Below, piece after piece: positions 641-24,150 of a stretch of DNA of 64,000 bases (position 1 is its first letter; each line of letters begins with the position of its first letter). Made by a program: the position numbers and the translations under genes. This DNA is from a virus (lineage: Duplodnaviria > Heunggongvirae > Uroviricota > Caudoviricetes), in IMG/VR virus record IMGVR_UViG_3300020048_000032, positions 19,147 to 83,146 of that record; one strand, 5' to 3'. The notes beneath the pieces are model-generated. The model did not search any database and was not told the origin of the DNA. It was given only the letters and a program-made list of their open reading frames with translations.

Positions 641-873
641 GTTTCCTTTGTTACTAGATAAAAGAAGTCATGGTGACTGCCATAATCAAATAAAGTATTA
701 CCGTACTCATCAAACCAGCTGCGCATATAAAAACACTGCACCTTCATGGTCTTGTGCATCTCTTCAAAAAATGCAAGACGAATCTCTTCAAAGTCGTCCG
801 CTTTAAATGTTCTAATCAGTATGCTGTCCTTAACATCGTACCCAGGACCCTGTCTTAATTCAAACTCTGGCAT
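637..873 (-). CDS. hypothetical protein
   Basis: ORF track; GGAGG-like RBS upstream. Confidence 0.5.
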   Translation of the reverse strand: MPEFELRQGPGYDVKDSILIRTFKADDFEEIRLAFFEEMHKTMKVQCFYMRSWFDEYGNTLFDYGSHHDFFYLVTKET

Positions 874-9004: not shown

Positions 9005-9150
9005 TTCTCTCGGTAAGGATTTGCACCTTACATGCAAAGGGTTCCGCGTCGTGTTGTCGTGCCTTGATGCACTTTCACATGTGCGACATGAACTGGGAAC
9101 ACATCTTCTTGCTTATATCAAGTAGCGTCTACCTATTCCGCCACGAGAGA
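9005..9150 (-). ncRNA. tRNA-like structured RNA element, copy E1 (146 nt)
   Basis: 7-bp closing stem TCTCTCG/CGAGAGA; D-arm-like GCG-GAATAGGTAGA-CGC; about 75-nt structured insert; hairpin GTAAGG-TGCAAAT-CCTTAC. Same architecture with compensatory stem changes at 17233..17360 and 17530..17643. Confidence 0.55.
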
Positions 9151-9154
9151 TATT

Positions 9155-9298
9155 TTAGTATTTTAAATTTCTAGCAAGCTGCTTATCGCAGGATGCACAG
9201 ATTATTCTTCCGTCTTTATTTGATGTTTGACTATACAATCTCTTATTGCATTCTTTACACACCGCCTGCACTGAGCGTTTCTTTTTCTTTCCGTTCAT
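9155..9298 (-). CDS. small zinc-ribbon protein (47 aa), missing from ORF track
   Basis: GAGG RBS 7 nt upstream; MNGKKKKRSVQAVCKECNKRLYSQTSNKDGRIICASCDKQLARNLKY (CxxC...CxxC). Confidence 0.45.
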   Translation of the reverse strand: MNGKKKKRSVQAVCKECNKRLYSQTSNKDGRIICASCDKQLARNLKY

Positions 9299-9313
9299 AG
9301 GTACCTCGCTTTC

Positions 9314-9841
9314 TTAATCCCAAAGTCCAGTAAGATGTTTTCCAAATGCCTCTAATCCTGCTTGCGCACGAGTAGCTGCATCTCTATGTTCTTCAAATGT
9401 TTTTTCACTAAATGGTGTAAGATAACAATTGTCATCAATTATCCATTGTAAGCCATAAAGCATTTCTTCTATTATTTTATCCCAAGCAGTACAAGGGTCT
9501 TCATCACGTGATGATGCGGTGTTATCAAAAAAGTCCACTGGGCATCCATGCTTCTCCATTTTACTAAATCGTACAAGTAACGGGTATATTTTCCAAGCCA
9601 CAGTATAATCTAATCCCCATAACTCAGTTTTCTTAGTAGGTCTATCCCAGTGAGTAGCACCTAAAGCACGCAACTCTTTTGCAACAAATATTCGGTCTAA
9701 TACCCAATCGATGGGCGGAATTTTTATTTGCATCCTTAAGATACGACCAGGTAAGATTCTAAGTTCATCACGTAGAGTCCAATCATCCATATTGTTGTCA
9801 TCGCTCTTCTCAAAAAGGTAATGCATAATCTTTTTTAACAT
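9314..9841 (-). CDS. hypothetical protein
   Basis: ORF track; 4-nt gap to the RNA ligase gene. Confidence 0.5.
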   Translation of the reverse strand: MLKKIMHYLFEKSDDNNMDDWTLRDELRILPGRILRMQIKIPPIDWVLDRIFVAKELRALGATHWDRPTKKTELWGLDYTVAWKIYPLLVRFSKMEKHGCPVDFFDNTASSRDEDPCTAWDKIIEEMLYGLQWIIDDNCYLTPFSEKTFEEHRDAATRAQAGLEAFGKHLTGLWD

Positions 9842-9845
9842 AGTA

Positions 9846-10901
9846 CTACTCCTTATTTTTCATTAAGAACTCTGGACTAACCGCTTTAAATGAACGCACT
9901 AGTCTACCAAAATCATCATATTGTCTAAACACTAGACCCTCTGCTAAGACATCCTTGTTTAGCGTAGATGGATAAGTTGCCATCTCTAAGATGTCATCAA
10001 CTTGTTTATCCTTAATATTAACCCAAGGGAATCTCACCGGGACATTCATAATATACTCATGCCCATTAAAGTTAGGTTGTTCTAGTGCAAGGCTTACACC
10101 ATCAATAATAAAATTAAACATATAAAATCTAATGTCGTCCAAGCCATACTTATTACCTTGAATCTTTGGTCCTATAATCTCACCTTGGATAACAACGGTC
10201 TTTGCACTAGTAGTTCTAGCAAACGACGTTAGGACACCTTTAATATTATATTTTACAGCAATCTTTGCCCAAATATTATCTTCATCATAAATACGATTGT
10301 TTCTAGAACAAATAATAAATTCATTATCCTTAAGTGCATAAGTAGCAGATGAACCATCTAGTTTTTCTGTAGCGGTCCAGCCACCATCTTCTTTAAGAAA
10401 CGCTGTATTATTTTGAATGCGGTCTTCGTCTGTTTTACGAATCCACCCAGGCCAATTAGATGTAACCTTTTTTCTAGAGATAGTCTTCTTGAATAGTTTT
10501 CTAAACCAAAGATATCTCATCATAAAAGAAAACAGTCTGCCTAACAGAGTCTTGCGTACTTCTACTTCTTTGTTATATTGTATGATGCCTAATTCTTTAG
10601 TAACATCATCACCAAGCTTATGCTTCTTCTTTAGGATACTAAGAGGGAACACAATTCCCTCGCTTCTTACCCCGGACATTTTCATAGTTTTAATAATATA
10701 ACGTTTTGATTCAAGAAACTTAAATTCTTCTTTAGGTGGAAGTTGACTATCAATTTCCACGTAAACACATAGGTCACCATTTTGAAACTGCCCCTTGACC
10801 ACAATAACATTCCAACCATCAACTTTAACTTGCTCGATACGGTCTTTACCTTCAATAGGGCGAATGTCACTAACTTGTCTAATTGTTGCTAGCTTTCTCA
10901 T
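9846..10901 (-). CDS. ATP-dependent RNA ligase (Rnl-type nucleotidyltransferase)
   Basis: Ligase motif I KxDG in TEKLDGSSATYAL; N-terminal MRKLATIRQV...VDGWNVIVVKG domain as in phage/bacterial RNA ligases. Confidence 0.6.
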   Translation of the reverse strand: MRKLATIRQVSDIRPIEGKDRIEQVKVDGWNVIVVKGQFQNGDLCVYVEIDSQLPPKEEFKFLESKRYIIKTMKMSGVRSEGIVFPLSILKKKHKLGDDVTKELGIIQYNKEVEVRKTLLGRLFSFMMRYLWFRKLFKKTISRKKVTSNWPGWIRKTDEDRIQNNTAFLKEDGGWTATEKLDGSSATYALKDNEFIICSRNNRIYDEDNIWAKIAVKYNIKGVLTSFARTTSAKTVVIQGEIIGPKIQGNKYGLDDIRFYMFNFIIDGVSLALEQPNFNGHEYIMNVPVRFPWVNIKDKQVDDILEMATYPSTLNKDVLAEGLVFRQYDDFGRLVRSFKAVSPEFLMKNKE

Positions 10902-10912
10902 GTACCCTCCGT

Positions 10913-11815
10913 TTATTTAGTTGTGTCTACAATAGCTGAGCCTGTAGTAATAGTTACCCAGCCCCATTTAATTCTTGCTTCCATTTCCATTTTCTTTAAA
11001 ATCTCTGGAGTGATGGAGAACGATAATAATTTATTTGCGTCAGCAGCTGTTTGAGCTTCGATTAAAGTAACCTTAGCTGCGGCCTCTGCTTCAATGACTT
11101 TAGTGGCTGCTTCAATGCGTGCTTTCTCTTGCGCTTGTAATGCTGTTTCAGCATCTTTTTTAGCGACAGCTTCTCTTACAATAGCACTCTCGATAGCTTC
11201 ACCTGCATCCGTATCTACTAAGGTTAAGTATTTAAAATTAATACCTACTGCGGACAGTTCCTCTTGAAGTCTTACATTTACTTCAGCAATTAAGTCTGCA
11301 CGAGCAACCCCTAGAATATCGATAATGTTATACCTTACCGTAACTTCTGAAATAGTTTTACGTAGTAAGTCTGGGATAAGAACCTCATCTACTGCTTTTA
11401 GAGTTCTAAACCCTTTAAATACAGCACTAGGTTCTGAGACATTGTACTTTAGATTGACTATAATAGTTACATATTGTGAATCTTTAGTTTGAGCATATAA
11501 CCCTTCAACAGTTTTCTCACGGACCTCAGTAGAGATAACATACAAAGTGTCTAATGGGGATTTAATATGCATGCCTTGTTCAATAACAGAGGTCTCACCT
11601 GTAACTTGATTAAACAAGATACCGGTAGAATTAACTGGCACTGAGGCATACATGGCAAATGCAATTAAGAGAAGTGGTAATAACCCTAAGAGAGTCTTTG
11701 CTTGAATCTTAAACGTAAGCTTGTCATTCCCCGCCTTGTCTGTAACAATACGAGCAGAAGCTAAAACTAATCCAATAATGGTAAATACGATAGATAGTAC
11801 TAAAAATAACATTTT
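10913..11815 (-). CDS. SPFH/band-7 (prohibitin/HflKC-like) membrane protein
   Basis: N-terminal TM helix; SPFH-like core; Ala/Glu-rich coiled coil (AQEKARIEAATKVIEAEAAAKVTLIEAQ). Start moved to MLFLVLS (RBS AAAGGAAAT) rather than the upstream in-frame ATG at 11899. Confidence 0.6.
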   Translation of the reverse strand, partial: KMLFLVLSIVFTIIGLVLASARIVTDKAGNDKLTFKIQAKTLLGLLPLLLIAFAMYASVPVNSTGILFNQVTGETSVIEQGMHIKSPLDTLYVISTEVREKTVEGLYAQTKDSQYVTIIVNLKYNVSEPSAVFKGFRTLKAVDEVLIPDLLRKTISEVTVRYNIIDILGVARADLIAEVNVRLQEELSAVGINFKYLTLVDTDAGEAIESAIVREAVAKKDAETALQAQEKARIEAATKVIEAEAAAKVTLIEAQTAADANKLLSFSITPEILKKMEMEARIKWGWVTITTGSAIVDTTK

Positions 11816-12046
11816 GTGATTTCCTTTCAATAGAGATAGCCAGTCTTTCCTTGCCTCGGGAACTGGCTGTGGCATGGTACCATGCGCCCTGTACAACATG
11901 CAGTGTTGTGAGCCGGTCAGTTTACTAACTGACTAAAGAGAGGTTTTTAATCTAACCACCCAACCTCTAAGGTCCCGCTTTTTTGTATTCTACCAGTACG
12001 GGCGTTTACTGAAGCAGTTTTATGACCACGTACTCAGGTCAGCTGA

Positions 12047-12382
12047 TTATTCGATAGACTCAACAACGTCTGGTTGAAGTTGTTTTTTGTTCTGCTTTAG
12101 CCAATATAAAGTATTTCTTAAATCGTTGATACGACCTTCCGCACCACTCAATGCATAAGACTGCTCAAAATTAAATGGTTCCTTCGATATACGAATGAAA
12201 CGCTCAATATCGTTATTTAACGCACTCTCATAACGTTTAATGGTATCGTCTAAACTCTGCAATAACGTCTTACGTGGATAATCTGGATTCTTTTTCATCT
12301 CTGCGCATAAATTGCAATACACCTTCGCATGATTTTCAACTACTATATGTAATTCACGACCACAACTACTACACTTTATCAT
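12047..12382 (-). CDS. hypothetical zinc-ribbon protein
   Basis: CSSCG...CNLC at N-terminus; GGAGGACAAG RBS. Confidence 0.5.
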   Translation of the reverse strand: MIKCSSCGRELHIVVENHAKVYCNLCAEMKKNPDYPRKTLLQSLDDTIKRYESALNNDIERFIRISKEPFNFEQSYALSGAEGRINDLRNTLYWLKQNKKQLQPDVVESIE

Positions 12383-12394
12383 CTTGTCCTCCTG

Positions 12395-12428
12395 ACCACA
12401 AAAATTTAGACCCTCAACGAAGAGGGTC
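12395..12428 (-). terminator. rho-independent terminator (minus strand)
   Basis: Minus strand reads GACCCTC-TTCGTT-GAGGGTC followed by TAAATTTTTG. Confidence 0.55.
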
Positions 12429-12477
12429 GTTTCAATCTAACCGTATGTTAAGTCCAACGAAGGACTAACGGGTAATA

Positions 12478-12618
12478 TTACTTCATCAAGTATACTATCA
12501 ATAATACCCAGCACAAAGTATCTAGGCTTGATAGTGCAATGACCAAAGCAGGATTCGTTCTCATCATATAACTTATACGCTGATTAGCACGGTATACTGC
12601 ATAGTTAACTCGTTTCAT
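12478..12618 (-). CDS. small hydrophobic protein (46 aa), missing from ORF track
   Basis: Strong RBS AAAGAGGACACCAA-ATG; MKRVNYAVYRANQRISYMMRTNPALVIALSSLDTLCWVLLIVYLMK; sits between promoter 12646..12674 and terminator 12395..12428. Confidence 0.45.
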   Translation of the reverse strand: MKRVNYAVYRANQRISYMMRTNPALVIALSSLDTLCWVLLIVYLMK

Positions 12619-12645
12619 TTGGTGTCCTCTTTCTTTAATAAATTC

Positions 12646-12674
12646 ATTATATCATGTATTGCTTATTTTGTAAA
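12646..12674 (-). promoter_or_regulatory. sigma-A-like promoter: -35 TTTACA, 17 nt, -10 TATAAT
   Basis: Conserved cATTATATCATG...TTTGTAAA block on the plus strand. Confidence 0.6.
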
Positions 12675-12714
12675 CATTTATTTTACAAAGTTCTTAATAT
12701 ATTCAATAAATCTT

Positions 12715-13386
12715 TCAGTCATTTTTATTCTCATATCGTTTTTCTATTTTTAACATCTTATTTAACTTCTCAATATCTGTTAACATTGTTGATAAAAACA
12801 TTGGACTTACATTTGACTCATTTTTATATATAGCATACATTCTTTCCGACCGTTCTAATTCATCCTTAAGGATATCTCCGATTATCGACATAAATTGTAC
12901 TTCCTCCTTTGGGCCTCTTGAGTCTAACGGTCCCATATCATGTTGCTTAAATTTACCCTGATATTTATCCCTACGCTGGGTTAACTCCCACATTAATTTA
13001 GTCATTAACACTAGTCCATATGGATTATAATTATCGTGACCCTTCGCAAAATTTATGCATGCTTTGTCTATTACGCTTTTAAATATTTCAATTCTACTAT
13101 TAATGTAGGCTTCATTAAAATAGTATCCGCAGCTTCTATCAATAGCATCTAATATTTTATCATCACAACTAATAGCAAATGCAAAGTCGTCTTCATACAT
13201 ATGGTTCCAGTAATTATCAAAATTAACCTTTGTACCACAGTTAGGACAATACACACCACCATAAGTGCCAGTACCAACTCCAACCCCACCATAAATAGCT
13301 TCTTCGCATGCGGAGAGCATATTTACGTAATCGCAATATCCACAGTAGCCTCCACCGCACAGCTCTTGACCAGTGACTATGCTCAC
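12715..13386 (-). CDS. Cys-rich hypothetical protein
   Basis: ORF track; CGGGYCGYCDY...CPNCG cluster near N-terminus. Confidence 0.5.
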   Translation of the reverse strand: MSIVTGQELCGGGYCGYCDYVNMLSACEEAIYGGVGVGTGTYGGVYCPNCGTKVNFDNYWNHMYEDDFAFAISCDDKILDAIDRSCGYYFNEAYINSRIEIFKSVIDKACINFAKGHDNYNPYGLVLMTKLMWELTQRRDKYQGKFKQHDMGPLDSRGPKEEVQFMSIIGDILKDELERSERMYAIYKNESNVSPMFLSTMLTDIEKLNKMLKIEKRYENKND

Positions 13387-13655
13387 TTAGTGTGCTGACC
13401 TTTCCAGTATGCAAACCAGGTTAACAAATAAACTAGAGTTGTGTGCATTGTAATAATCAGCAAGATGATTAGTATATCGCTTTTAGGTGACTTTAAATAA
13501 GTAGATATCAATATGCCTATAAACAAAAATAAATCAATTAACAATATAGGCCATAACCCTCCATGTACTTTTGTATTTAGCACTTGTGTTATTTTTTGAG
13601 ATACAAAGAAGTACCCCATGCCAATTAATACTAATAGTATATACCCATAATTCAT
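13383..13655 (-). CDS. membrane protein (3 TM helices)
   Basis: ORF track; hydrophobic throughout. Confidence 0.5.
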   Translation of the reverse strand: MNYGYILLVLIGMGYFFVSQKITQVLNTKVHGGLWPILLIDLFLFIGILISTYLKSPKSDILIILLIITMHTTLVYLLTWFAYWKGQHTK

Positions 13656-13681
13656 AATATACCTCCGATGTTAATAATTAA

Positions 13682-13788
13682 GCCGCCCCAGGGGAATTGA
13701 ACCCACAGACCCTACTATACCACTCCGCCACTAAGGCGGTGCGGAATCGAACCGCTAGTAGACGATACCATCGGGGCGGATTTGGTCA
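13682..13788 (-). ncRNA. tRNA-like segment I could not fold cleanly (two T-arm-like motifs; possible 98-nt long tRNA or two degenerate tRNAs)
   Basis: GCGG-TTCGATT-CCGC and GGG-TTCAATT-CCC motifs; ends CCGCCCC...GGGGCGG could pair as an acceptor stem. Confidence 0.3.
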
Positions 13789-13862
13789 TGCTACGCAGAA
13801 TTGAACTGCGATTGGTAGGATGAAAACCTACTGTCCTTCCATTAAACGATAGCACGATGAGA
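13789..13862 (-). tRNA. tRNA-Glu(TTC): tRNA-Glu(TTC), CCA encoded
   Basis: Hand fold: acceptor CGTGCTA/TAGCATG, D-stem GTTT/GGAC, anticodon arm GTAGG-TTTTCAT-CCTAC, T-arm CGCAG-TTCAATT-CTGCG, A-CCA. Confidence 0.7.
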
Positions 13863-13917
13863 ATGTCTTTTCGTGAAGGCTAGGCATACAGAACCTTAAT
13901 TACATTATATCACAATT

Positions 13918-14718
13918 TTATTCTTTTGTAAACTCTTCTTCTATACTTTTTTTAACTATCTGTTTAATTAGGTCATTTACTTTATAGAGAGTAGTACCTT
14001 CAATTGGATAAAGGACTTCCTGTTCTTGCTTTTCCCTCTTCAACTTTTCAATTAAATATTTTGCAGCTTCTTCTGCCTCGTCTAAAGTTAACTTACCTAC
14101 CTTAATGTCCAGCATACTATCACGCGCTGGGCCTTCTGAAAACCACAGGCTGTTTGTAAAGCTTATTCCCATTACTAGTCTATCCATCATGTGAGATAAT
14201 CTTGCAATGTGATGTAGCTGCTTTGGGTCATAGCCAAACTTTTCTATTTTCTCGAGCGTGGCTGGATACGGATGCTTCAGGGCCTTCTGTTTCTCTAAGG
14301 CCATACCATATATACATTTTATTAAAAGTGCCTTACGGTCGCTTACAATGTCCGGTAGGAAGTCTCTAATTTGTTTCCATTCATCTGAATAATCAGTAAC
14401 GAAAATATTACTGGCTAGGAGTTCCAAGTAACTCGGATTCGCTTTAGCCAGTAACTCTTCTAACAACCTAACATCTTTGATTTCTACTTGGCCCCAATCT
14501 GTCTTAATAACTTTTGAGACCATTTTATTAGTATAAATATCATCGAAGTCTGGCAAGACAAAAGCCTTGCAATCAATATCAGAGGAGTAGTCTGGACTGT
14601 AGATATCTAAATTATAGTTCTGAGACCCGTGTAAAACTATTACGAATACTTTGTACCCGTCTGCTTTTAAGTCACATGTGACCTTGGCTAGAACGCCTAT
14701 AATTTCTTTCTTATTCAT
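13918..14718 (-). CDS. Pol-beta superfamily nucleotidyltransferase (RNA-repair-associated type; possible CCA/tRNA nucleotidyltransferase role)
   Basis: Motif LHGSQNYNLDIYSPDYSSDIDCKAF (hG[GS]...DxD); class-2 promoter upstream. Confidence 0.45.
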   Translation of the reverse strand: MNKKEIIGVLAKVTCDLKADGYKVFVIVLHGSQNYNLDIYSPDYSSDIDCKAFVLPDFDDIYTNKMVSKVIKTDWGQVEIKDVRLLEELLAKANPSYLELLASNIFVTDYSDEWKQIRDFLPDIVSDRKALLIKCIYGMALEKQKALKHPYPATLEKIEKFGYDPKQLHHIARLSHMMDRLVMGISFTNSLWFSEGPARDSMLDIKVGKLTLDEAEEAAKYLIEKLKREKQEQEVLYPIEGTTLYKVNDLIKQIVKKSIEEEFTKE

Positions 14719-14769
14719 TGATACTCCTCCTCTGTTGTTATTAATTATCTCTTCCCTATATAAATAAAT

Positions 14770-14803
14770 ACTACATAAAAAGAATCTAAGTTAATTTACT
14801 TTG
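14770..14803 (-). promoter_or_regulatory. promoter class 2 (TAACTT, 15 nt, AG, TATTTATTTA)
   Basis: Aligned copy. Confidence 0.5.
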
Positions 14804-15335
14804 TTCCTTTTTTGTCTGTACGTTTTCTAAACAAATATGCAGCAATAATAATTAGTACTAAAATCCAAAACGGAATTGTGCCTATCATAAACCACATCCA
14901 ACCTCCACCACAGAAGGTACAGACAAGTTTATCAACGTAAACAATTTTTTCGACAACTTTATCCACATAAATAATTTTATCTACTAAAATTTCTTTAGTA
15001 ATAATTTTATCAACATAAACAGTTTTAACTACCTCTTTGTCTACATATACAATTTTATCTACATAGATGTTTTTAATTACTTCTTTGTCGACATAGATAA
15101 GCTTGTCCACATAAATGGTCTTAATGACTTCTTTATCTATATATACAATCTTGTCTACATAGATAATTTTTGGTTCACATGTACATTTTGGGTCATCATG
15201 ATGGTTACTGCCATCATTATGTACATTTTCATTATGGTTACAATTATCATTGTCATGGGCACTAACATTTGCGGCCGGTGCAAACAATAACAGCACAACT
15301 ACAGAAAGCAGTAGTATACTAACTAATTTTTTCAT
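14796..15335 (-). CDS. secreted, membrane-anchored tandem-repeat protein (signal peptide; His/Asp/Asn-rich segment; about 9 YVDK repeats; C-terminal TM helix)
   Basis: MKKLVSILLLSVVVLLLFAPAANVSA signal; HDNDNCNHNENVHNDGSNHHDD; repeats YVDKIVYIDKEVIKTI; the DNA carries 48-nt tandem repeats at about 14935-15175; C-terminal WMWFMIGTIPFWILVLIIIAAYLFRKR. Confidence 0.6.
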   Translation of the reverse strand: MKKLVSILLLSVVVLLLFAPAANVSAHDNDNCNHNENVHNDGSNHHDDPKCTCEPKIIYVDKIVYIDKEVIKTIYVDKLIYVDKEVIKNIYVDKIVYVDKEVVKTVYVDKIITKEILVDKIIYVDKVVEKIVYVDKLVCTFCGGGWMWFMIGTIPFWILVLIIIAAYLFRKRTDKKGTK

Positions 15336-15434
15336 TATGAGTCCTCCTTTTGGACAGAAGGTCGGTTACACTATTAGCTTCATATTGTTCAAGTGTCCAT
15401 ATACAAACAATACTTCATCGCGTCCAATTTATAC

Positions 15435-15713
15435 TTAGCTTTCGCTAGAGTATTTTGCTAACTTCTTTAAATCTGATATCTTCCAATTCTTATTCAGTCT
15501 TAATCCCGCTTTATGATAAGTAGAGTAGCGACGCATTGTTTTAGTATTTGTCTTCTCTGTGCAATAGGAACAAGAGCAATGAATCTTGTTCTTACTTAGT
15601 CTACCATCGTCTCTCCACCATGGATAATCATTTGACCAAATCTTAGTTAGAATGAATTTCTTCTTTTTAATATGGCGTTCTCTTTCGTAGATAATTTTTT
15701 CTCTAGTGTGCAT
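15435..15713 (-). CDS. basic hypothetical protein
   Basis: ORF track. Confidence 0.45.
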   Translation of the reverse strand: MHTREKIIYERERHIKKKKFILTKIWSNDYPWWRDDGRLSKNKIHCSCSYCTEKTNTKTMRRYSTYHKAGLRLNKNWKISDLKKLAKYSSES

Positions 15714-15743
15714 AGTTCCTCCATATATTATATTGGCACCCCA

Positions 15744-16331
15744 CTACTGTTTTGTCTGTACCTTGCCTGCTCTTGGGCCACGGATAACACCTTTTTGAGC
15801 AGCAGATATTCTTGCTCGGTGTTCTTCTGAAAATGGAGGAAGTTTTCGCCCTGTTAATGCTTTTGATAGGTTCTTTTTATGCACTTCCGACCTAGGTGCT
15901 CGCTTAACCCCGGTATGAGCAATTGACATCTTCTCTTTTGTTTTATCTGAATGACATTTGCCTTTCATCCAGGGTACTTGACCTTTATTAGATAAAGATG
16001 CTTTTAATTTAGATTCTTCTGAATGAGCGGCATACTCTCCACCTGTTGTAGAATTATATCCAAACTCATAATTAGTAGAATTATGTTCTGCAATCAGCTT
16101 AATTTCAAGTGCACAGGCATCTTCTTTTGTTAAGCCAGATGCTATAATCTCATGCTGTACATTTTCCCAACTATACTTCTGGATAGCCCTAGCTAAATTT
16201 GGCTGACTAACCTCTTTGTATTTATTACCAAAAGTTCCCCACCTGCTTGTTGGTATTTTTGCCCCAGTTAATCCTATATAAACTTTTCCATTAGGAAATG
16301 TATGTTTATAGACTACATAAGATTTAATCAT
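15744..16331 (-). CDS. GIY-YIG homing endonuclease with NUMOD3-like DNA-binding repeats
   Basis: YVVYKHTFPNGKVYIGLT (GIY...YIG); repeats GKCHSDKTKEKMSIAHTG, RSEVHKKNLSKALTG, FSEEHRARISAAQKG. Confidence 0.75.
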   Translation of the reverse strand: MIKSYVVYKHTFPNGKVYIGLTGAKIPTSRWGTFGNKYKEVSQPNLARAIQKYSWENVQHEIIASGLTKEDACALEIKLIAEHNSTNYEFGYNSTTGGEYAAHSEESKLKASLSNKGQVPWMKGKCHSDKTKEKMSIAHTGVKRAPRSEVHKKNLSKALTGRKLPPFSEEHRARISAAQKGVIRGPRAGKVQTKQ

Positions 16332-16794
16332 AATTTACCTCCAAATTTTCTTTCCTAAACAATATTTATATTAGATACTTATGTTTAATTGGTCCGCTCA
16401 GAAGAACTTGAATCCTCAACCTTCTCGTTCGAAGCGAGCTGCACTATTCAATTGTGCTATAGGCGTATAGAAGTCCCCCTAACGCGCAACACTATCCCTT
16501 TGATATAAGGTCGTGTCAGATGCACCAGAAGCAGAGTTCTTTCATCTGCCGAAGGACTATATTGAATCTGGTTACCGCTTGCCTTGGTAATATCGTTTAT
16601 CCAAGACGCTCTAAATCTTAGTATGTCGCCAAACATACCATTACTGTCAATTAGTGGAGTAGCACATTTTTCAATTGTTAGTGGTCAACCGAAATCGTCA
16701 CTTGTTTTATGTCTGGACGCCAGATGGCAGAGTACTCCCAACTCTTCCCGATAGTTTTAATGGCACTATCTACGCCCATAGATTTATTTGGTGG

Positions 16795-16830
16795 AGCTGA
16801 CGAGAATCGAACTCGTGTTAGTTACTGTGC
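16795..16830 (-). ncRNA. tRNA-Ala/tmRNA-like 3' terminal module (T-arm CGAG-TTCGATT-CTCG, then CAGCTCC-A-CCA) with no canonical 5' partner nearby
   Basis: Minus strand reads ...ACGAGTTCGATTCTCGTCAGCTCCACCA. Confidence 0.35.
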
Positions 16831-17232
16831 TGGCTCTATACATTCGTACTTACAGCACTACTAGTATAGACACCGTGCGTTGTAACTCTGACCATGACAA
16901 CCCCATAAGTTGAGCAGTTAGATAGCATGCTCAGGCTTTCTCACCCTGGTAATTCGCAATACCAGAATCGGTAAGTAAGTATCTTCGTCAAGACTTACTT
17001 ATCTTATGGTTTCTCGTCGACTGCAACCATCAAACTCCGACTGCCCCTTGACCATATACTTTAACTAGGGTAAGTGCCTGTAAGTACTGTTGGATTCGAA
17101 CCAACGGCTCAGCCATTACCAATCAACGATAACTCGTTAACTCGTAATGATGAATACCGATATGTGCCTCGGTATAACGGCTAACTGTCTAGCCAGTTAT
17201 ATTTATAGTGCATACTGGTTAGCACATAGTTT

Positions 17233-17360
17233 TCTTCCAGTAAGGATTTGCACCTTACACGATTGTCGACCAAACACAATAACTCCATATACGTTTATTG
17301 TGAGTCACCAGTATGAACCATCGTTCAAGCCTGTGTGTCTACCTATTCCACCATGGAAGA
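17233..17360 (-). ncRNA. tRNA-like structured RNA element, copy E2
   Basis: Closing stem TCTTCCA/TGGAAGA (compensatory relative to E1); GTG-GAATAGGTAGA-CAC; hairpin GTAAGG-TGCAAAT-CCTTAC. Confidence 0.5.
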
Positions 17361-17529
17361 ATCTTAGCTCCCACTTACTGGTAGGGTACACCATATCTAG
17401 TAGGTTGGCTATGTCCCTACATCTCTTTAAGACCACTGTATTCTTCGATGTATGCGTTGAAAGTATTCTCCGTAATAAGCGTTGTTGATTCGTGGTGTGG
17501 CAGCTGCCTGTTCTGCCCTTAGATAAATA

Positions 17530-17643
17530 TTTCTTGGCAAGGAATCGTCACCTTGCACTGCTGTCCTAATTGGTGTTCACCGTCCCAGCACACCAGCAAA
17601 ATTGAACCAAACCTGTTGCGTCTCACTTTTCCGCCACAAGAAA
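17530..17643 (-). ncRNA. tRNA-like structured RNA element, copy E3 (divergent)
   Basis: Closing stem TTTCTTG/CAAGAAA; GCG-GAAAAGTGAGA-CGC; hairpin GCAAGG-TGACGATT-CCTTGC. Confidence 0.4.
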
Positions 17644-19191
17644 TATTAATGTAGGCGTTCCAATCCTACTTCCGTCGCTGGCTTACTCAATCCTATAAGA
17701 GTTACCTTGGCGTTATCGACGAACCTTTCGGGTGTTTCCCAACTCCTGGATGGTTATCCGATTCTGTCGCATACTGGCATATGCATTGAACTTTGTTACA
17801 TACTCTCCATATGTAGTCCAACTAGAGACTCTTTTTTCGTAAAGAAAGAGCCTTAAACGTTAAAATGGTCTGGATTATTTATCACTATTCTAGCATGGCG
17901 CTAGCGCCATGCCGCCATACAGGGGCGGAGGGAGCCAATGTCGAACCTTACTCTATCCATCATTCGAGTTCGTGGCATCGGGAATTTTAGCTCTACCCGT
18001 AAGAGTACTAGTTATAGGTTTATCGTCTCCAGACCGACTAGATAGCATACTATCATCTGACCTAGTTTCCGTCTCATAGGCTGACAGTGAATACTTACGT
18101 TTCACATGAAAGGATTGCTCCCTTATTCTGGTTGATTACGAGCCATAACTCGCTTTCGCCCGCGCATTTACGAGCCCTAGGTTGCTGGTTTAGCGACACG
18201 GCTTGTCGGATAGTCTGTGGATTGTGGCCACATTCTCATCATGATGGTGTATGCACTCTCCCTTTAAACTCAAGCTTCATGAGTACCATCACTAATACCG
18301 TTCTCTTTGGCACACGGTAACACTGTGCGATTGGCAATACCGCCTATTTCACTGTCGTCGGGTAAGCAACGTATAGTTCTTAAGGAACCACAAATTAAAT
18401 CGCGATTAATCTGCAGTCCCTCATCCCGCTCATACGTCAGGATTGCCACAGCGAACTATAAAGTCTTATCTTCTAGTGGTATCTATACGAAGATATCGTG
18501 GTGTAGATTTTGTTTACGTGTTCCTCGCGAGTCTACGCTTTTTTGTCCTACAAACACTAGCCTTATTCTGTAGCTTAACATAATACGCTTCTTAGGGCGT
18601 CAAATTTGCTCCCTTTTCTGGAAGACTTTCGCTCGTTTTTGAGACCATACTCACATGGTTAGTGAGAACTAATAGACCTTGCGAGGTTATAGTATTGGCC
18701 ATAGAGTGAGCATTTTTATAACTTGCTCAGGTTAACACATTTTATATATACCCCGTACTAGATAGAGGAGCTGCCCTTGATGTTACTCCAGGGAAACAGC
18801 AGTGTATTGGTAGTTTTTAGACGTGTCCGGTCTTGTATATTACCACATAGTGGTTTATACCAATTTAGGTACCAACTGTCGGACTTGCACCGACATCCCC
18901 CGTGGTCATCGCCCATATTGAGTGGACGACTACTGACAGGGCCTCTGCTAATTGATAAGTAGGTTGGTATAATGATGGTTCCGCCTGCGGTTTTACGCAT
19001 ACTGTAGCGACGCCTATTGAAGGTCGTTAGTCTTCTGTCTCTGGATTAACAGTCCAGTATGTTACTTTACACTATTTAGGTTTTTCAAGTGGCGAAACCG
19101 TGAAGTAGTAAATGGATTTTGTCGAGAGGTTTGCTCCGGAGCTACTCAGTTTTGTTCCATTTCACGCGGCCATTATAACGACCGCATATTA

Positions 19192-19845
19192 TTAGTCTAC
19201 TTTTTCGAATACATCTAAAACATATCCTAAAGCATCTTTCTTACGGGTATTCCTTAATAGGATACTCTCATCTATTTTAATCTTTCCATTCTCATCGGTT
19301 ACTACATCATTGCGACCTGTAACAGTAAATAAATATTCTCTAGCATACCATTCTTCCAAGAAATGATAATTCTCTTTTGGCAACCTGCCTACAATATTTG
19401 CAGGCGTATGCTCTGGAACAGGTTTATAATCTACTACAGCAATTGATACGTTTAAGTGATTCCTACTGTCCAGCTTAGCACCATGAATATGACCATGGAT
19501 ATTTAATACTGAGTCATTAACCTTGATGGGTTCGTGACTAAGCACAATGCGTTTAGTAAAATAAATAGGTCTATCATGCACTTCTGTAAAATAAGTATAG
19601 TACTCATTAATAGGCCTGTTGTCATGATTTCCCATAATAAGAATTTTCCTGCCATTCAATTTGCGAACATTTTCTGCTTCGCCTATATCACCTAGGATAT
19701 AGAGTACATCATTTAATTTAACTACTTTATTAATTTGTTCTATAATAAAATTGTCATGTTCTTGAATTGTTGAAAACTGCGTTCTCTCGAACTTTAAAAT
19801 ATTAGCATGACCGAAGTGAAGGTCAGAGATAAAGTATGTGTTCAT
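19192..19845 (-). CDS. calcineurin-like metallophosphoesterase (candidate end-healing phosphoesterase for RNA repair)
   Basis: Motifs SDLHFGH, LGDIGE, MGNHDN, HGHIHG. Confidence 0.7.
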   Translation of the reverse strand: MNTYFISDLHFGHANILKFERTQFSTIQEHDNFIIEQINKVVKLNDVLYILGDIGEAENVRKLNGRKILIMGNHDNRPINEYYTYFTEVHDRPIYFTKRIVLSHEPIKVNDSVLNIHGHIHGAKLDSRNHLNVSIAVVDYKPVPEHTPANIVGRLPKENYHFLEEWYAREYLFTVTGRNDVVTDENGKIKIDESILLRNTRKKDALGYVLDVFEKVD

Positions 19846-23203: not shown

Positions 23204-23381
23204 ACCTATATAATACTTGCAAATATTATACAGAACCATTAAATCTTATTGCCCTCAGTAAGTGTGCATTGTTAAGAGGCATCTGAGGTACTGTCAATAC
23301 TGAGCAACCAGCGGGACTTTAACCCACATTCTCCACACAATCACACGTGTGCCATTCTAATTAAAATATGGTTGCATAAGT

Positions 23382-23460
23382 TGGACGAGGAAGGAGTTGA
23401 ACCTTCATACCTAAACTTGTTAACTGAGCACTCAACGCTTTACCCTTAAGCTACTCGTCC
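23382..23460 (-). ncRNA. tRNA-like gene with aberrant anticodon arm (pseudo-tRNA or non-canonical tRNA)
   Basis: Perfect acceptor GGACGAG/CTCGTCC, D-arm GCTT-AAGGGTA-AAGC and T-arm GAAGG-TTCAACT-CCTTC, but I found no 5-bp/7-nt anticodon stem-loop. Confidence 0.35.
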
Positions 23461-23590
23461 ATATGATGCCTGTTGTTTAAACAGGGAGGCATCACCCTAT
23501 GCCACAATTGTTACTGACGGAATGTGGGAAACCAATGTCATGAATCATCAGTTTAATTAGGAGATGAAACTGATAAAGAACCTTAAAATT

Positions 23591-23944: not shown

Positions 23945-24150
23945 ATGTTGGGAACTGCTGGACTCAAACCAGCAACGATAGTTTTATAGCGCGCATCTTC
24001 CTATCACCAGGGTCTAATCCCCAGCTCGTATTTCAATTCCGACAAGTTCCCATAGATGAGGGGTTTGTAGGAGTTGAACCTACCGTAGTCTGCCGACTAC
24101 CGACCGCAGTATAGTGGAGTTGAACCACTCAGCACGTGCAGAAGCTGCCA
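23945..24150 (-). ncRNA. three further T-arm-containing tRNA-like segments that I could not resolve into canonical cloverleafs
   Basis: Minus strand motifs GCTGG-TTTGAGT-CCAGC+AGTTCCC, AGTGG-TTCAACT-CCACT+ATACTGC, GTAGG-TTCAACT-CCTAC+AAACCCC. Confidence 0.3.

Follow-up and report, generated by a model that had tools for sequence, protein, structure and literature searches.

A transfer RNA (tRNA) frame can lend processing signals and nuclease resistance to a foreign structured RNA joined to it or placed within it, as is known from engineered tRNA scaffolds and from the tRNA-microRNA units of murine gammaherpesvirus 68 (MHV68). In phages, the closest described systems are the species 1 and species 2 RNAs of T4 (rnaC and rnaD), which are stable RNAs of the T4 tRNA cluster and have a function still unknown (PMC3014915; PMC9697503). 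In this study we discuss three tRNA-like elements, named E1, E2 and E3, in a stretch of 64,000 nucleotides (nt) from a virus of the Caudoviricetes (IMG/VR record IMGVR_UViG_3300020048_000032, positions 19,147 to 83,146); this whole stretch is called the window below, and positions are counted from its first letter. On the whole, E1, E2 and E3 are real members of a widespread, unannotated phage RNA family, which so far comprises more than 270 copies from IMG/VR phage contigs, Bacillota prophages and cultured phages. Most likely, as far as sequence comparison can tell, they are genes for non-decoding tRNA-like RNAs descended from a phage class II tRNA-Leu.

The three elements and their parts are given below, all on the minus strand, with the scores of the covariance model R1, which was built from 40 copies of other phage contigs with the sequence of the window excluded.

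9006-9150, minus: E1, 145 nt, matched by R1 over its full length (63.7 bits, E=3.8e-15)
9144-9150 (5' strand) and 9006-9012 (3' strand), minus: acceptor-like terminal stem of E1, TCTCTCG/CGAGAGA
9142-9143, minus: U8 and G9 of E1
9125-9141, minus: D arm of E1, GCG-GAAUAGGUAGA-CGC
9032-9124, minus: variable insert of E1, 93 nt, with the anticodon-arm-like hairpin ACUUG-AUAUAAG-CAAGA at its start
9013-9031, minus: T-like arm of E1, GUAAGG-UGCAAAU-CCUUAC
17233-17360, minus: E2, 128 nt (R1 67.8 bits, E=2.9e-16)
17354-17360 (5' strand) and 17233-17239 (3' strand), minus: terminal stem of E2, TCTTCCA/TGGAAGA
17352-17353, minus: UG of E2
17335-17351, minus: D arm of E2, GUG-GAAUAGGUAGA-CAC
17259-17334, minus: variable insert of E2, 76 nt
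17240-17258, minus: T-like arm of E2, GUAAGG-UGCAAAU-CCUUAC
17530-17643, minus: E3, the divergent copy, 114 nt (R1 44.1 bits, E=9.6e-10)
17637-17643 (5' strand) and 17530-17536 (3' strand), minus: terminal stem of E3, TTTCTTG/CAAGAAA
17635-17636, minus: UG of E3
17618-17634, minus: D arm of E3, GCG-GAAAAGUGAGA-CGC
17557-17617, minus: variable insert of E3, 61 nt
17537-17556, minus: T-like arm of E3, GCAAGG-UGACGAUU-CCUUGC, with a loop of 8 nt

The initial annotation, made from the letters alone, had proposed in the window a three-copy family of tRNA-like structured RNAs which are not canonical tRNAs. R1 recovers exactly E1, E2 and E3, while the next-best score in the window is 14 bits and the weak matches are class II tRNAs. 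The parts named there, that is a 7-bp terminal stem, TG, a D arm with a 3-bp stem and an 11-nt loop, a 6-bp hairpin in the place of the T arm without a canonical T loop (UGCAAAU, not TΨC) and the 3' strand of the stem, are all found at their minus-strand sites. Two of its figures are corrected here: the coordinates of E2 and E3 hold, while E1 starts at 9006 instead of 9005, base 9005 lying outside the stem; and the variable insert is indeed present and structured, with lengths as listed above instead of 50-75 nt. In DNA letters, the D arms read G(C/T)G-GAATAGGTAGA-C(G/A)C in E1 and E2 and GCG-GAAAAGTGAGA-CGC in E3, and the T-like hairpin of E3 reads GCAAGG-TGACGATT-CCTTGC; the sequence confirms that E1 and E2 share an identical GTAAGG-TGCAAAT-CCTTAC hairpin and D-loop block, and that no CCA is encoded after E1, E2 or E3. 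Common tools pass over all three elements: ARAGORN calls eight tRNAs in the window and none on E1, E2 or E3, and a search of the window with Rfam 15 gives nothing overlapping them even at E<=5. On its own strand no open reading frame (ORF) of at least 40 aa covers E1, and E2 and E3 fall in a 2-kb stretch without convincing genes. Folding of the single sequences beats shuffles weakly, with z = -2.0, -1.6 and -0.75 for E1, E2 and E3 respectively.

Three sequences cannot establish covariation, and relatives were therefore needed to settle the question. The E1 and E2/E3 regions have no BLAST match among the INPHARED cultured-phage genomes, as the conserved blocks lack the necessary length and the insert varies too much. 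An exact-pattern scan finds the 19-mer of the E1/E2 hairpin in at least 120 IMG/VR stretches. A further 67 stretches with it come from species-representative genomes, most of them Bacillota (Weissella, Leuconostoc, Pediococcus, Levilactobacillus, Megasphaera, Bacillaceae and Lachnospiraceae). Nearly all stretches have the block (G)UGGCGGAAUAGGUAGACGC at 60-200 nt upstream of the hairpin 19-mer, together with a 7-bp inverted repeat of free sequence that encloses the copy (7/7 positions paired in 84 of 104 cases); the total copy length among these hairpin-anchored matches is 80 to 220 nt. With R1, 213 copies are found at useful scores in 190 fetched loci, with at most five per locus. In addition, BLAST with two family-specific queries identifies the element in the Leuconostoc phages LN34, phiLNTR2, phiLNTR3, CHA, CHB, P974, Ln-9 and phiLM33_01, as well as in Liquorilactobacillus phage UCMA21115 and Lactiplantibacillus phage Gut-P1. 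It is annotated in none of these cultured-phage records, ARAGORN calls no copy of the family, and Rfam 15 has no family for the copies. In the literature searched no description of the family was found; it may be among the 10,006 unnamed candidate RNAs catalogued from IMG/VR (PMC10690425).

The search with the covariance model thus returns many homologs, and the stems of this wider family prove the compensatory changes to be covariation, which three copies could not do. In the alignment named A2, all seven pairs of the terminal stem covary, 97% of the cells are paired, and none of 500 shuffles is as good; two of the three pairs of the D stem covary as well. Covariation in the T arm had to be shown in another sample, for which the D-arm 19-mer was the anchor, because the first one had itself been chosen by the T arm. 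In the D-arm-anchored sample five of the six T-stem pairs covary with 97% pairing, the variants including GUCAGG/CCUGAC, GCGAGG/CCUCGC and AUAAGG/CCUUAU. The terminal stem of 167 unique copies contains 41 G-U pairs versus 8 A-C juxtapositions, therefore the element is an RNA, read on the strand of the neighbouring genes and tRNAs; the outermost pair of this stem is formed in 83% of copies. The shared blocks are not protein-coding either: no frame is consistently open across 192 copies, and the best one, which is antisense, is open in 63 of them (33%).

The kinship with class II tRNA-Leu is seen in the tertiary core. Among 148 copies, U8, A14, A15, G18, G19, U48, U54, C56, A58 and G53-C61, which build the tRNA elbow, are 99-100% conserved, among which A15 (100%) and U48 (99%) correspond to the A15-U48 pair of class II tRNA-Leu. 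The 19-mer UGGCGGAAUAGGUAGACGC is exactly common to the family and to bona fide phage tRNA-Leu genes, so that the class II D arm suspected in the initial annotation indeed matches the D arm of true tRNA-Leu genes of phages. The D-arm-anchored scan returns two classes: true tRNA-Leu of 81-85 nt, with the T loop GGUUCGAnUCC and often ACCA, and the present type of at least 100 nt, with a 6-bp T stem and the loop UGCAAAU. The family's own marks are G55, the sixth T-stem pair and a near-fixed G7-C66: G55 is present in 146 of 148 copies, with the loop UGCAAAU (UUCAAAU in a minority of copies), and the T stem of 6 bp instead of 5 gives 13 stacked pairs together with the acceptor stem. NCCA is encoded in a few copies only (ACCA in L310, GCCA in L280 and CCCA in L250).

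What the family usually misses is the anticodon arm. A hairpin with the geometry of this arm (5-bp stem, 7-nt loop, U33 and purine 37) follows the D arm in 6 of 160 copies (3.8%), while such a hairpin occurs at random internal positions at a null rate of 3.1%. Neither E2 nor E3 has one after the D arm; the candidate in E1 has four of five pairs, with an A-A mismatch in the stem and the anticodon AUA, and the copy L038 retains an anticodon arm with the Leu anticodon GAG. The arm is absent in about 96% of copies, and therefore codons are as a rule not readable. Calling the elements tRNAs with a giant variable-arm insertion, as was first offered, is thus right for the architecture, the insert standing at the variable-arm place, and fails for the function; a decoy or a tRNA-derived regulatory RNA, also offered there, may still apply. 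The minimal member L206 (75 nt) can be aligned to the Rfam tRNA model over its whole length, and its score of 26 bits falls slightly short of the gathering score of 29.

Several sub-variants are also observed. Four copies of L070 (455-585, 910-1035, 1237-1399 and 6335-6460) have an enlarged T loop, which is also present in L200, L236 and L275; GUAAGG-UGACAGAAAUUCAAAU-CCUUAC is an example, and the 8-nt T loop of E3, UGACGAUU, begins in the same manner. Insertions or truncations of the D loop occur in L061 (3559), L073 (7674) and L087 (404). In addition, Rfam tRNA matches of 114-146 nt with canonical T loops are found in the same phage tRNA arrays (L088 12696-12841, L124 2533-2661 and L044 1106-1219), and these may be large-insertion tRNAs of another type.

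The variable insert, located at the position of the variable arm, ranges from 20 to about 170 nt across the family. In 109 of 200 inserts the predicted outer helix closes exactly 2 nt (AU) before the T stem, the place at which the variable arm of a class II tRNA also ends, and folding of the 200 inserts compared with shuffles gives a mean z of -0.83 with 78% below zero. The 201 unique inserts form 167 clusters. Related inserts (L016/L183, L026/L144, L028/L050/L054 and L310/L297/L280) show, by eye, apparent compensatory changes with the loops kept. The insert of E3 is homologous to that of the copy in the IMG/VR contig L021, which is the only real one among its further IMG/VR matches, the others being coding sequence. 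Some groups of prophages have near-identical flanks and an identical acceptor stem (TGACAGG/CCTGTCA or TGAGATG/CATCTCA) with four to five unrelated inserts, and one insert can recur in different flanking contexts; this shows that the inserts are exchanged as cassettes, presumably via the conserved D-arm and T-arm blocks. In L087 (404-565, minus) the insert is a complete tRNA-Thr (GGU), called by ARAGORN at 447-519 and by Rfam at 448-518 (53.5 bits), and a canonical T arm lies inside several other inserts. A UAAG linker after the D arm, considered as a motif of the family, was rejected, as it is present in only 20% of copies with weak enrichment.

As for the genomic setting, the tRNAs within 500 nt of the copies lie on the same strand in all 53 cases, and tandem arrays of up to five copies occur with spacers down to a few nt. 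In 143 of 210 copies there is no other tRNA-like gene in the locus; such solitary copies typically belong to prophages and usually lie there between the gene of a DUF722-family regulator and the genes for HNH, small terminase and large terminase. In the Leuconostoc phages of 28 kb the element comes after an HNH gene, and in LN34 its distance to the genome end is 146 bp. The Leuconostoc phage LLC-1 (KJ608189.1; L199 2563-2637, plus) carries an unannotated genuine tRNA with the anticodon UGC, the upstream and downstream flanks of which are the flanks that enclose the element in the related prophages L037, L089, L029 and L045, and an intrinsic terminator marks the end of the downstream flank, some 230 nt further. 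In this single example the element and a true tRNA occupy one slot, which suggests that they are interchangeable. An own promoter or terminator is weakly enriched among the copies (26 of 149, versus 9 in a smaller, unrecorded number of control windows), and none is detected for E1-E3 in the window. Rfam analysis of 29 further loci gives only tRNAs, one RAGATH-18 RNA and one sub-threshold chance match opposite a tRNA. A RAGATH-18 RNA (73.2 bits) lies at 701-773 (minus) of L146, a contig of a metagenome-assembled genome from Bacilli which also holds three copies of the family.

Based on these features, the reading we prefer, to which we give a probability of roughly one half, is that the RNA would be a non-decoding derivative of tRNA-Leu, matured like a tRNA, the frame of which serves as a scaffold displaying an exchangeable structured module. 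It would be co-transcribed with its neighbours and then excised by RNase P and RNase Z, CCA would then be added to the excised RNA, and the product would accumulate as a stable L-shaped RNA outside translation, where G55 and the 13-bp stack of acceptor and T stems may keep it from the Ψ55 synthase, EF-Tu and the ribosome. The tRNA frame would provide processing and stability and present a phage-specific, exchangeable insert, with a host protein, a nuclease or an RNA as the possible target of the module. To go further and see here a natural 'tRNA scaffold' system of Bacillota phages, with a fixed tRNA-Leu-derived frame that G55 and the 13-bp helix hold outside translation and that acts as a general cassette for expression, processing and stability, and with structured RNA effectors (aptamers, sponges or decoys versus host defence or physiology) swapped into it by recombination at the D-arm and T-arm blocks, is possible and yet doubtful; if true, the more than 160 insert classes would be a large repertoire of phage RNA effectors, and T4 RNAC and RNAD would be distant analogues.

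Several observations weigh against the scaffold reading. Pairing often continues 1-2 bp beyond the 7-bp stem (67% and 54%, versus a background of 38%), and the position that follows the stem holds A in 52% of copies, U in 37% (E3 included), G in 8% and C in 3%; an A in only 52%, together with the extension of the stem, is unlike the clean 3' end of a tRNA. No protein family accompanies the element consistently, the recurrent neighbours being generic (DUF722 regulator, HNH, small and large terminase). Among the multi-copy and long-insert loci no insert matches an Rfam family, and the inserts of E1-E3 have no complementary target in the window, where the longest complementarity of 10-11 nt equals that of shuffled controls. 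Finally, near-insertless copies exist (L206 of 75 nt and L006 of 80 nt), and therefore the frame itself may be the active part.

The last point leads to the alternative that survives best, in which the insert is largely a spacer and the frame acts as a decoy or sponge for a host factor reading the elbow and the acceptor end of tRNAs. Candidates for such a factor would be a defence nuclease that cleaves tRNAs, a tRNA-tail nuclease or a toxin that modifies tRNAs. G55 and the 6-bp T stem would then make the RNA a poor substrate of translation factors or resistant to cleavage. This would agree with the near-invariant elbow bases and UGCAAAU beside a freely varying insert, with the minimal copies of 75-80 nt, and with the many temperate phages that have a single copy and no other tRNA nearby. 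The widespread occurrence of tRNA-targeting immunity, with phage tRNAs among those cleaved (PMC13056530; PMC12851939), is also counted in its favour. However, an RNA without an anticodon loop cannot distract the anticodon nucleases, which are the best-known class, and insert subfamilies that are conserved with apparent compensatory changes and exchanged as cassettes are unlike a spacer, so that we regard a pure frame decoy as unlikely.

Processing punctuation alone is improbable. Transfer RNAs punctuate mitochondrial transcripts, and mascRNA does likewise in MALAT1; here the fold would similarly bring RNase P and RNase Z to long phage transcripts for cleavage, the excised RNA having no role. 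The copies do lie between genes or RNAs with very short spacers (E3 is 2 nt from a skipping-rope RNA), the usual prophage site is between the regulator gene and the HNH/terminase genes, and E1-E3 show no promoter or terminator of their own in the window, all as expected for punctuation. An ordinary tRNA would nevertheless serve equally, and the G55 loop, the 6-bp T stem, the conserved insert subfamilies and the arrays of up to five copies are left unexplained.

An RNA charged with leucine, as a leucine donor outside the ribosome or for titration of leucyl-tRNA synthetase (LeuRS), has quite a small chance in our view. Bacterial LeuRS does not depend on the anticodon or on the variable arm, the identity of E. 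coli tRNA-Leu consisting of A73 and the tertiary core of the D and T loops. The tRNA-Leu D arm with A14, A15, G18 and G19 is kept in the family, as is U48, ACCA is encoded in some copies, and the thirteen stacked pairs could disfavour EF-Tu, by inference from tRNA-Sec. Against it stands the discriminator, which is A in no more than 52% of copies, with U in 37% and also in E3, and no aminoacyl-transferase gene is linked to the element.

It is very improbable that the elements are a signal at the DNA level (packaging, attachment or a homing-endonuclease site) or decaying tRNA pseudogenes. A DNA signal, such as the recombination or packaging signal named in the initial annotation, would fit the place next to the HNH/terminase genes in prophages, the 146 bp from the genome end of LN34, and the exact 19-nt blocks common to unrelated phages. 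It is disfavoured by the excess of G-U over A-C (41:8), which marks a transcribed strand, by a covariation that keeps pairing and not sequence, by the three to five copies within the tRNA arrays of some phages, and by the integrase not being among the recurrent neighbours. A pseudogene would not be expected to keep every base of the tertiary core.

The weakest alternative, a working decoding tRNA with a giant variable arm or a removed intron, could appeal to the hairpin directly after the D arm of E1, to the Leu GAG arm of L038 and to the end-to-end fit of L206 with the Rfam tRNA model, but is hardly credible when such a hairpin is about as frequent as its null and absent from E2 and E3, the E1 anticodon would be AUA on a mismatched stem, no group I or other intron family matches at E1-E3 or at the long-insert copies, and both ARAGORN and the Rfam tRNA model miss E1-E3. 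An intron-bearing tRNA in particular was rejected, with no intron family match, no 3' half of the anticodon stem, and inserts of 20-170 nt.

The neighbourhood of E1-E3 in the window is itself rich in RNAs. The region 16300-19200 (minus), about 3 kb, has nearly no convincing ORFs and is dense in tRNAs and tRNA-like RNAs, and genes for an RNA ligase and other enzymes are interspersed with the tRNA-like genes. The main features are as follows.

9846-10901, minus: RNA ligase (PHA02142 OB fold and RNA_ligase)
13918-14718, minus: nucleotidyltransferase-like protein
15744-16331, minus: GIY-YIG/NUMOD3 homing endonuclease
16393-16466, minus: tRNA
16789-16904, minus: mini RNA like transfer-messenger RNA (tmRNA), 116 nt (Rfam tmRNA, 37.8 bits, gathering score 47)
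17392-17527, minus: skipping-rope RNA (RF02924), 51.9 bits, with a 54-nt insertion
19011-19081, minus: tRNA
19192-19845, minus: metallophosphoesterase

The skipping-rope RNA sits between E3, 2 nt upstream, and E2, 31 nt downstream, and is beside the element in none of 29 other loci scanned. The RNA at 16789-16904, on which ARAGORN makes no call, has the acceptor stem GGGGUUG/CAGCUCC with G3-U70 and no D stem, a single long hairpin replaces its anticodon arm, and the canonical T arm ACGAG-UUCGAUU-CUCGU and an encoded ACCA follow; it resembles the tRNA-like domain of tmRNA without a tag frame, as a second kind of anticodon-less tRNA-like RNA next to E2 and E3. Ligase, nucleotidyltransferase, endonuclease and phosphoesterase genes among tRNA-like genes are reminiscent of phage tRNA repair and of homing endonucleases of tRNA regions, T4 SegB being one. 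In the same RNA-rich region, a T-arm-like hairpin, GTTGGTTCGAATCCAAC, lies at 17089-17105, and the stretches 16905-17232 and 17644-19010 have no explanation. A c-di-GMP-II (cyclic di-GMP) riboswitch aptamer is found in this phage genome at 15352-15434 (minus; 59.8 bits, gathering score 53.5), directly upstream of a 179-aa ORF at 14796-15335. Further on, a tRNA called by ARAGORN at 23380-23461 (minus) has the four-base anticodon gctc, and 23950-24051 (minus) holds another weak tRNA-like element, with a long insert (R1 12.3 bits).

Overall, the analysis brings out an abundant and strongly covarying RNA family that is invisible to annotation pipelines and Rfam models, and occurs in cultured dairy and gut phages, Bacillota prophages and hundreds of rumen and gut phage contigs. 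Phage 'tRNA regions' hold a second class of genes, probably non-decoding tRNA derivatives with exchangeable modules, and for annotation the model built here tells the elements apart from genuine tRNA-Leu genes. Should the frame prove to be a natural RNA scaffold or a decoy for tRNA-binding factors, this would matter for phage counter-defence versus tRNA-targeting immunity, and the frame could be a chassis for RNA expression in Gram-positive bacteria. The family also links to the half-century-old question of the role of T4 RNAC and RNAD, with the 28-kb phages as possible test systems.

Among the closest known systems is class II tRNA-Leu of phages and Bacillota (RF00005), which is alike in the 7-bp acceptor-type stem, U8, G9, the 3-bp D stem with the loop GAAUAGGUAGA, U48, U54, C56 and A58, the long arm at the variable-arm place, and the location in tRNA arrays. 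In contrast to it, about 96% of the family is without the anticodon arm, G55 replaces U/Ψ55, the T stem has 6 bp, the insert reaches about 170 nt, CCA is rarely encoded, the discriminator is not fixed, and ARAGORN and the Rfam tRNA model miss the copies. The tRNA-like domain of tmRNA likewise has the acceptor stem and T arm at the RNA ends and a large insert replacing the anticodon arm, but differs in the G3-U70 alanine identity, the missing D stem, a tag frame with pseudoknots and an encoded CCA; tmRNA was rejected as an identity for the family, whose acceptor sequences are free with no fixed G3-U70, whose D stem is full, and for which E1-E3 give no tmRNA match. Engineered tRNA scaffolds and MHV68 units are man-made or belong to a eukaryotic virus, where the viral cargo follows the tRNA, whereas in this natural bacterial-virus RNA the cargo replaces the anticodon arm and the scaffold role is a putative one. 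Finally, T4 rnaC and rnaD are, like the family, small RNA genes in a phage tRNA cluster on the tRNA strand, and rnaC (139 nt) also has a terminal stem, a T arm by the 3' end and long hairpins between. It differs in a canonical 5-bp T arm with the loop UUCGAAU, in the lack of a tRNA-Leu D arm, in the Gram-negative host lineage, and in that no cassette-like insert diversity is known for it; R1 gives it 5.1 bits (E=3), so it is not of the same family. Within the already known phage-encoded tRNA-like RNAs, what is new here is a large unannotated family.

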